In this document: positions 47,453-47,908 of the stretch, in pieces
Layout of the letters: each line of letters starts with the position of its first letter
Numbering within the stretch: the first letter of the stretch is position 1
Assembly: GCA_963708295.1 (NCBI GenBank)
Contig: CAVPSJ010000004.1
Coordinates: 320,001 to 384,000, forward strand
Direction of reading: 5' to 3'
Length of the DNA: 64,000 nucleotides
DNA from: an uncultured delta proteobacterium
GTDB lineage: Bacteria > Desulfobacterota > BSN033 > UBA1163
Made by a program: the position numbers and the translations under genes
Notes under the pieces: model-generated
Database searches by the model: none
What the model was told of the DNA's origin: nothing
Seen by the model: the letters and a program-made list of their open reading frames with translations, nothing else

Positions 47453-47496
47453 TTTCCTTCCCTCCTTGGTTTTTGGGTATTTTGGTTGAAGTCATT

Positions 47497-47544
47497 ACAA
47501 AAAACAAAAAAGCCCACTGCCAGTCTCTCTCTTGGCAGCGGGCC
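47497..47544 (-). terminator. Intrinsic terminator in the met leader (attenuator)
   Basis: Minus strand GCCCGCTGCCA-AGAGAGAGAC-TGGCAGTGGGC-TTTTTTGTTTTTT, about 45 nt before metY ATG. Confidence 0.88.
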
Positions 47545-47575
47545 TTTGGGTGCCGTAATATTTATCCGATGGTGC

Positions 47576-47689
47576 TTACATGGGCGCCCCTCCCCTGTCA
47601 AGATGACGACACATGGACATGCAGCACATCATCATTGATTTGCCATCTCTTCGCTCGGAATATGCGATCTTCGACAGTCTGCCCATCAT
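47576..47689 (-). CDS. Met/Cys-rich attenuator leader peptide MMGRLSKIAYSERRDGKSMMMCCMSMCRHLDRGGAPM
   Basis: ATG ATG ATG TGC TGC ATG TCC ATG TGT control run, located between the promoter and the terminator. Confidence 0.85.
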   Translation of the reverse strand: MMGRLSKIAYSERRDGKSMMMCCMSMCRHLDRGGAPM

Positions 47690-47725
47690 TCTCACTTTTC
47701 CCAAAAAAGTCAGTCTAATTAACTC

Positions 47726-47768
47726 CCACATTGTGGTACTAATTTAACATATGAATAAATTTTGTCAA
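47726..47768 (-). promoter_or_regulatory. met operon promoter with palindromic site near +1
   Basis: TTGACA(47768-63)-16-TAAATT, followed by CCACAATGTGG (47726-47736). Confidence 0.65.
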
Positions 47769-47908
47769 GTCTTTTTTCAAAAAAATTTTGATCCCTTTCA
47801 GATGGTAAACTAAAAAACCGCATTCAAATACTCACGACACCCTGCATCCACGGGGAAAAGTTTTCCAGGTCTTCAGTTTAGAACCCCGAAGCCCACCCGT
47901 CTGGAGTA

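Follow-up and report, generated by a model that had tools for sequence, protein, structure and literature searches.

What controls the metY-metX-metW operon on the minus strand of a 64,000-nucleotide (nt) stretch of the genome of an uncultured delta proteobacterium (contig CAVPSJ010000004.1, positions 320,001 to 384,000; hereafter the window)? Bacterial met genes are controlled by S-adenosylmethionine (SAM) riboswitches, T-boxes and the protein regulators MetJ, MetR, SahR and McbR, and classical leader-peptide attenuation is exemplified by the trpL, hisL, leuL, thrL, ilvL and pheL leaders of Proteobacteria. To our knowledge methionine is a conspicuous gap in leader-peptide attenuation, the reported sulfur leaders being Cys-only. 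Upstream of metY in the window, a short open reading frame (sORF) with eight Met or Cys codons among nine lies between a predicted promoter and a predicted intrinsic terminator. From the comparative sequence patterns described below we propose, at a probability of roughly 80%, that this leader is a ribosome-mediated (leader-peptide) transcription attenuator of metY-metX-metW whose control codons specify Met and Cys.

Architecture of the metY leader

The promoter, the 37-residue ORF with its eight Met or Cys codons in nine and the terminator that a sequence-only reading of this DNA had described are all present on the minus strand. The sigma-70-type promoter (47741..47768) matches the consensus at 10 of 12 positions, with TTGACA at 47768..47763, a 16-nt spacer and TAAATT at 47746..47741, and TG precedes the -10 hexamer; relatives carry a comparable CTTGACAAAA...TAAA(T/C)T arrangement upstream of the leader. 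The sORF (47576..47689) comprises 37 codons followed by TAA (47576..47578) and encodes MMGRLSKIAYSERRDGKSMMMCCMSMCRHLDRGGAPM. Read from an ATG at 47731, the open frame gives a longer, 51-residue form, and homologues point to a start at 47689 or 47686.

The regulatory codon run, MMMCCMSMC (47609..47635), lies 10 codons ahead of the stop. Its first part, GAUGAUGU (47626..47633), doubles as the 5' strand of a leader hairpin whose 3' half (47568..47591) holds the codons G-G-A-P-M, the stop and a post-stop segment, GCACCAUC (47568..47575), that pairs with the Met run. Between the codon run and this 3' half, the codons L-D-R-G make up the antiterminator strand B, CTTGACAGGGG (CUUGACAGGGG; 47592..47602), which is complementary to the terminator 5' arm (strand C). 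The intrinsic terminator (47500..47544) consists of the stem GGCCCGCUGCCA / UGGCAGUGGGC (47544..47512) with a 10-nt loop, followed by UUUUUUGUUUUU, whose U-tract reads U6GU5; the predicted energy of its hairpin is -20.9 to -23.2 kcal/mol. It is absent from a simple consensus scan because the 10-nt loop exceeds the 3-8 nt range of that scan. The minimum free energy of the whole leader is unremarkable (z-score -1.16).

The Met/Cys run itself is far beyond chance. Among 7,282,861 stop-free stretches of nine codons in the six frames of the 4.95-Mb genome, a single one holds at least eight Met or Cys codons, and it is the run described here; the six-frame Met/Cys codon frequency of 3.9% gives an expectation of 0.0003 such stretches.

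Copies of the element in relatives and metagenomes

The sequence-only reading had called for a scan of the DNA upstream of metY in related bacteria for Met/Cys-rich sORFs with covarying stems, and such leaders are indeed found. BLAST of the leader against 60 relatives identified nine genomes with similarity extending from the Met/Cys run as far as metY, all with an in-frame sORF ending in xSMMMCCMxMCxxLGxGGPPM-stop and a terminator. A covariance model trained on 13 copies located the element in 15 of the 55 genomes of the family (8 of 21 genera) and gave no match in the class's two other families (13 genomes). A pattern scan of metagenome contigs contributed 27 loci, and removal of duplicates left 36 distinct copies, which form the alignment used throughout (A4). 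The window stretch is present in metagenomes from wetlands, soils and sediments.

A sample of 151 genomes of the phylum contained one genuine divergent copy outside the family (L220, genome G291). This locus (about 1400..1634) carries the leader MNGLDMNLLSVKPNSLSTKKCCCMDMRCPWEWGGLLMLN, with the run KKCCCMDMRC, and a terminator upstream of metY, and is richer in Cys than the family consensus. Of the two matches in that sample, both weak, the other (L221 in G196) was discarded as a terminator alone, with no sORF and no met gene.

Two genomes carry the element in tandem: G003 (L006/L142) and G010 (L007/L143) each have two full leader-terminator units about 230 nt apart before one metY, the upstream copy having a diverged run (STMMCFMGMC or SMMMCMMAMC) and the ending GGPSM-stop. 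A scan of genome contigs for the exact Met/Cys codon word returned at least 118 matches, mostly chance occurrences in coding regions; eight among the 118 matches listed are the element, seven of them already known through the relatives. In two Clostridium records (L029 and L047) the codon word falls inside ORFs that read MMMCCMPCGMHPMMGMHGMHHGMCPMM..., rich in Met, His and Cys, and these look like a metal-binding protein rather than a leader.

Conservation of the leader reading frame

The sORF frame and the terminator are kept in all 36 copies and the stop is in place in 33, with the consensus S-M-M-M-C-C-M-x-M-C-C-L-x-G-M/R-G-G-P-P-M-stop. Met is kept at its five positions in 31, 28, 35, 34 and 32 of the 36 copies and Cys at its four positions in 33, 30, 21 and 21, giving a median of five Met and three Cys per 10-codon run. 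The first Cys codon varies synonymously (TGT in 22 copies, TGC in 11), and the codon between the Met codons varies freely among A, D, S, T, V and P.

The frame also extends beyond this core. Upstream of it, frame 0 has a median open length of 29 codons (10 and 3 for the other two frames) despite freely diverging nucleotides, and it is the longest of the three in 31 of the 36 copies. Most copies have an in-frame ATG about 17 codons ahead of the run, or about 15 before the start of the model. Internal insertions and deletions in an 11-sequence alignment measure 3, 6 and 9 nt. The interval from run to stop has no insertion or deletion across the 36 copies, and the spacer and the terminator loop are rich in them.

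Three mutually exclusive RNA pairings

Three mutually exclusive pairings are conserved on A4: the terminator, the antiterminator and the leader hairpin. The terminator is paired in 95.5% of alignment cells, with three pairs changed on both sides, compared with 20-51% in slid controls. The antiterminator joins B (columns 40-50) to the terminator 5' arm (columns 103-115), the complementarity that the sequence-only reading had pointed out between the L-D-R-G segment and the terminator. It is paired in 86.0% of cells (slid controls 17-51%), carries compensatory changes at 4 of 11 pairs, in 14 cells, and has a covariation score that only 2 of 500 shuffles match.

The leader hairpin, which that reading had not described, adds a third conserved structure and is paired in 94.4% of cells versus 24-52% when slid. 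In it the Met run GAUGAUGU pairs with the post-stop segment ACAUCAUC, GCAUG with CAUGU, and B with the Gly-Pro-Pro codons (GGxCCxCC), so that a role of this hairpin in sequestering the antiterminator is plausible from the alignment. A further refinement of the earlier description is that the Met codons are more strictly kept than the Cys codons. In the window the predicted energies are -23.1 kcal/mol for the leader hairpin and -14.8 kcal/mol for the antiterminator (B:C) duplex; the means over the 36 copies are -24.3 for the hairpin, -14.0 for the B:C duplex and -16.2 kcal/mol for the terminator.

No Rfam family accounts for these structures. A search of 47300..48000 with Rfam 15 at E values up to 10 returned noise alone (CRISPR-DR21, PyrG_leader on the terminator, drum and others, far below the gathering score) and no match to a SAM riboswitch or a T-box, and 18 homologous loci gave no Rfam family at the gathering score. 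SAM-I (RF00162) was not found in the 91%-complete genome, under conditions in which control genomes were positive. With no covariance-model match in the leader or in the 18 homologous loci, identity with a SAM riboswitch or a T-box was rejected.

A proposed kinetic attenuation model

In the mechanism that we propose, transcription would begin at the TTGACA/TAAATT promoter and a ribosome would load on the 37-codon sORF. When charged Met-tRNA and Cys-tRNA are ample, the ribosome would reach the G-G-P-P-M-stop end and cover B and its surroundings; with B covered while RNA polymerase makes the terminator, transcription would end before metY. With either charged tRNA in short supply, the ribosome would stall on MMMCCMxMC, melting the base of the leader hairpin and leaving B free, and B could then pair with the emerging terminator 5' arm, permitting read-through into metY-metX-metW (metY-cysK-metX-metW in some relatives). 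We infer translation of the sORF, stalling of the ribosome and the kinetic order of these events, and the leader is predicted to sense both Met and Cys. Such dual sensing makes sense because the MetY family acts on both O-acetylhomoserine and O-acetylserine and because cysK lies inside the operons of some relatives, so that Met and Cys are both products.

We folded transcripts truncated before the terminator 3' arm, masking a ribosome footprint from A-15 to A+12. With the A site on the run, an antiterminator of at least 7 pairs formed at six or more of the nine run codons in 33 of the 36 copies and at one or more in all 36. With the A site on the Gly and Pro-Pro codons it was absent in 34 of the 36.

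Other results weigh against attenuation of this kind or qualify it. When the full leader was folded to equilibrium with a masked ribosome, the terminator formed at every ribosome position; an equilibrium in which it always prevails requires the switch to be kinetic. Moving the A site to the final Met in the truncated folds brought back an antiterminator of at least 5 pairs in 7 of 36 copies, and moving it to the stop did so in 11 of 36, since strand B has its end 14 nt ahead of the stop and lies largely exposed once the ribosome is there; this modelling suggests that the conserved Pro-Pro-Met-stop end may hold the ribosome over strand B during terminator synthesis. An antiterminator also formed in 23 of the 36 truncated folds with no ribosome present. 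The window's own sequence behaves ambiguously, reaching 7 or more B:C pairs at one of the nine run codons, because of competition for the terminator arm from a 5' GGCAG segment.

The comparative evidence has weak points of the same kind. Because the 36 sequences come from close relatives within one family and from metagenome contigs resembling them, the counts lack independence. The leader hairpin covaries weakly: 2 pairs and 3 cells have changes on both sides, and the observed measures are equalled or bettered in 66-221 of 500 shuffles. Shine-Dalgarno (SD) complementarity ahead of the sORF ranges from weak to moderate (-0.7 to -8.6 kcal/mol, with one value of +0.2), and the window's start codon is ambiguous among 47689, 47686, a GTG and 47731. 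The 51-residue form has no homologue among predicted proteins, which shows no more than that gene callers pass over this ORF.

Physiology and expression raise two further difficulties. Methionine starvation also limits the charging of initiator tRNA, and lower initiator charging could reduce ribosome loading on the leader and so favour the non-translated state. Four RNA-library runs yielded one contig (X17, 162 nt, about 96% identical, from a soil metatranscriptome) over 47588..47716, inside the leader; this sole RNA hint could derive from DNA.

Alternative explanations

The closest alternative is a sub-variant of the proposed mechanism, in which the same attenuator effectively senses a single amino acid, most likely methionine, and the Cys codons are tolerated because UGY/AUG-rich sequence supplies self-complementarity. 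The Met run doubles as one strand of the leader hairpin, the Met positions (28-35 of 36) are stricter than the Cys at run positions 9 and 10 (21 of 36), and one copy (L153, genome G030) reads MIMRGMSMRS, with no Cys at all, and retains both terminator and metY. The first two Cys codons, however, are kept in 33 and 30 of the 36 copies, exchange TGT and TGC freely and lie in unpaired columns (17-19), a pattern suggestive of selection for the amino acid and not for pairing. The divergent leader from another family, KKCCCMDMRC, is richer in Cys, and the products of the operon include those of the O-acetylhomoserine/O-acetylserine sulfhydrylase family and, in some genomes, of cysK. We consider sensing of methionine alone unlikely, although it is the strongest of the competing explanations.

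Two other explanations would dispense with attenuation by a stalled ribosome. One is an undescribed riboswitch aptamer, for SAM, methionine, homocysteine or a similar ligand, with a terminator/antiterminator platform and an incidental ORF. A stable conserved hairpin (mean -24.3 kcal/mol), highly conserved unpaired nucleotides, a downstream terminator with an alternative pairing and the weak SD pairing would all suit an aptamer, and met genes are typically riboswitch-controlled according to the available parts of two surveys (PMC4239095, PMC545781). An incidental ORF, on the other hand, would not be expected to stay open through poorly conserved upstream sequence with an in-frame ATG at a conserved distance, to accept indels in multiples of three, to keep its stop at the same place in 33 of 36 copies and to exchange Cys codons synonymously; Rfam offers no match, and the unrelated leaders of Bacteroidota and Gracilimonas described below share the codon run alone and not the surrounding RNA. 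We regard a riboswitch as improbable. Still less probable, in our judgement, is that the sORF has a functional small peptide as its product, whether a metal-binding one rich in Cys and Met or the precursor of a ribosomally made, post-translationally modified peptide (RiPP) for downstream radical SAM enzymes, and that the hairpin is its own terminator. The window does have two radical SAM genes downstream of metW, the homologue in G010 has a SPASM domain, and the C-terminal GGPPM is conserved as amino acids: over RGGPPM, a metagenome copy (L072) and the copy in G034 differ by synonymous changes alone (four in L072). Yet the window, G010 and G034 have radical SAM genes after metW, and four of six relatives examined (G006, G028, G030 and G027) have none there, whereas the element tracks metY instead. 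A peptide of this sort gives no role to the compensatory antiterminator or to the tandem leader-terminator units, and the Met/Cys codon composition fits the products of the pathway. The RiPP/maturase variant was rejected on gene neighbourhood, there being no conserved radical SAM co-location.

Association with metY

The genes downstream of the leader are those that the sequence-only reading had named, with NCBIfam matches above curated cut-offs; Pfam was run as well. On the minus strand, metY (46154..47452), of the O-acetylhomoserine/O-acetylserine sulfhydrylase family, matches TIGR01326 at 659 bits (cut-off 495), metX (44797..46065), a homoserine O-acetyltransferase, matches NF001209 at 514 bits (cut-off 331), and metW (44193..44807) matches TIGR02081 at 236 bits (cut-off 189.5). 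A strong SD sequence (AAGGAGG) precedes metY, whose start lies 51 nt past the end of the model match. In G010, G028 and G034 the operon is metY-cysK-metX-metW, the cysK of G010 being assigned to TIGR01139.

Counting metY proteins at E <= 1e-100, we found a metY of the window's type in 15 of the 55 family genomes, and 14 genomes carry both this metY and the element. Both genomes with just one of the pair owe this to contig ends: G005, with metY and no element, has merely 30 nt upstream of metY, and in G009, with the element and no metY, metY is cut after 66 codons. Every such metY with assembled upstream DNA therefore bears the leader.

Across the 36 copies, the first gene downstream is metY in about 30. 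Other first genes are of the XdhC family (L156 and, from a metagenome, L183), a small DUF2292 protein (L072) and an unassigned ORF (L176); L161 ends at a contig edge, and L160 and L167 gave no clean metY start under the ORF rule. L156 (G006:C89) is a second leader copy in the same genome, KPVMMCCMDMCFLTGMGGRPM followed by a stop, and stands before a gene for an XdhC-family maturation factor. The gene after the L156 and L183 leaders is NF045664-like below the cut-off and matches Pfam XdhC_C and XdhC_CoxI. L072, in a record titled as a Candidatus Omnitrophota metagenome-assembled genome, carries the leader copy MMMCCMAMRSLLGRGGPPM at 995..1137, then a 63-residue DUF2292 protein (1169..1360) and a DUF3034 protein, with no metY. 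Its phylum label is unlike that of the window's family and could reflect transfer or mis-binning.

Relation to known regulatory systems

The proposed mechanism is itself classical, of the trp/his type; what is new is its Met/Cys specificity. Like those attenuators (textbook; available parts of PMC2965389 and PMC1262725), the leader combines a short ORF, codons for the product of the pathway, a terminator, an antiterminator that uses the terminator 5' arm and a putative upstream sequestering pairing. Unlike them, its control codons are mixed Met and Cys and lie 10 codons before the stop, and its sORF ends in a conserved G-G-P-P-M-stop whose codons fall within the putative sequestering hairpin.

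Cys-specific leaders offer the nearest parallels. Poly-Cys leader sORFs occur in Actinobacteria (Seliverstov et al. 2005, PMC1262725; Canestrari et al., 10.1101/834739), and the cysS uORFC-8-2 motif of Rhodobacterales ends in a terminator (PMC8632094). According to the parts of these papers available, Cys codons in such upstream ORFs have been proposed or shown to link the charging of Cys-tRNA with the expression of sulfur amino-acid genes or cysS, as the present leader would; they are, however, Cys codons alone and control cys operons, cbs or cysS. Mycobacterial poly-Cys leaders are also described, in the available portion of PMC1262725, as being without conserved terminator hairpins, whereas the leader in the window has a predicted terminator, antiterminator and sequestering hairpin. 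Set against these partial accounts, membership in the actinobacterial poly-Cys class was rejected, as the run in the window is Met-dominated and mixed, stands 10 codons before the stop and upstream of metY, and is followed by a conserved terminator.

SAM riboswitches (SAM-I/S-box, SAM-II and others) are the usual RNA control of metY and metX, and surveys of methionine regulation in Proteobacteria report riboswitches and protein regulators and, in the portions of their text available, no leader peptide (PMC4239095, PMC545781). The proposed attenuator resembles SAM riboswitches in its target genes and in its output, premature intrinsic termination in the 5' leader; its proposed input is tRNA charging read by a ribosome and not SAM bound by RNA. 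The sequence-only reading had known of no validated mixed Met/Cys attenuator. Neither Rfam 15 nor a search of openly accessible full texts yielded a leader peptide for Met or for Met/Cys, so a prior description in subscription-only literature is possible.

A conserved Met/Cys leader would imply that stalling on elongator Met codons is usable as a signal although methionine is also needed for initiation, and would provide a natural system for testing how cells separate the elongation and initiation demands for methionine. The element would read the tRNA charging of two chemically linked amino acids together, fitting the sulfhydrylase family and the occasional cysK. For annotation, it would account for an intergenic region missed by both Rfam and gene callers, and the covariance model and peptide motif can be used to find more.

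Putative Met/Cys leaders in other phyla

Met/Cys-rich sORFs are also found before met genes in Bacteroidota, where they stand behind a SAM-I aptamer and before metY or metX (L035, L076, L080, L073, L123 and L210-L218, with the run at about 1001 or 1501). Within one Bacteroidota order the exact MCCMCC codon word occurs in 10 of 87 genomes, and the reversed control in none. All twelve of the loci scanned with Rfam have a SAM-I aptamer (RF00162, 55-68 bits, above the gathering score); a thirteenth, L123 (618 nt), with the same sORF and the start of metY, was outside that scan. The sORF begins about 10 nt after the aptamer, as in MKTKNQINN...SVMMMCCMCCCMC followed by a stop, and metY or metX follows 110-190 nt further on. 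Its ending is MMMCCMCCCMC-stop, with the variants MCCMCCCMY, MCCMCCCIC and MIMCCMCCCCMC, and a terminator-like 15-bp hairpin followed by a U-rich tail is built from the Met/Cys codons themselves.

A Gracilimonas locus (L060, about 962..1150) shows the reverse order, leader and then riboswitch: the sORF MKLFQQNITNPFAMMMCCMYMCYAQT, a GC-rich hairpin and a U-run precede SAM-I (1149..1288), which is followed by metY. The Bacteroidota and Gracilimonas leaders share the codon run alone with the element of the window, and it can be argued from this that the codons, and not a common RNA fold, are the functional core.

On this basis we suggest tentatively, and at somewhat less than even odds, that leader peptides with Met/Cys codons, having arisen repeatedly in front of metY and metX, make up an unrecognised class of sulfur amino-acid sensors that is widespread across several phyla. 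If so, a single leader could combine SAM sensing by RNA with Met- and Cys-tRNA sensing by the ribosome, and in Bacteroidota the leader peptide ORF would serve as the expression platform of the riboswitch. Judging by the Bacteroidota composites, many 'orphan' expression platforms of SAM-I may be leader peptides.

Other features of the locus

The A-rich stretch and CTTGACAAAA around the -35 hexamer (47760..47800, minus strand) recur at dozens of other sites across the family's genomes (20-45 nt at 85-100% identity) and are probably a common strong-promoter context of the clade.

Downstream of metW the minus strand carries the two radical SAM genes, at 43032..44174 and 41882..42952. The second looks frameshifted: its 356-residue ORF has a plausible N-terminal radical SAM domain and a low-complexity tail, and an overlapping 130-residue ORF in another frame (41938..42330) resembles a Cys-rich SPASM end. 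The homologue in G010 is intact, with a SPASM domain, and the frameshift in the window could be an assembly error or mark a pseudogene.

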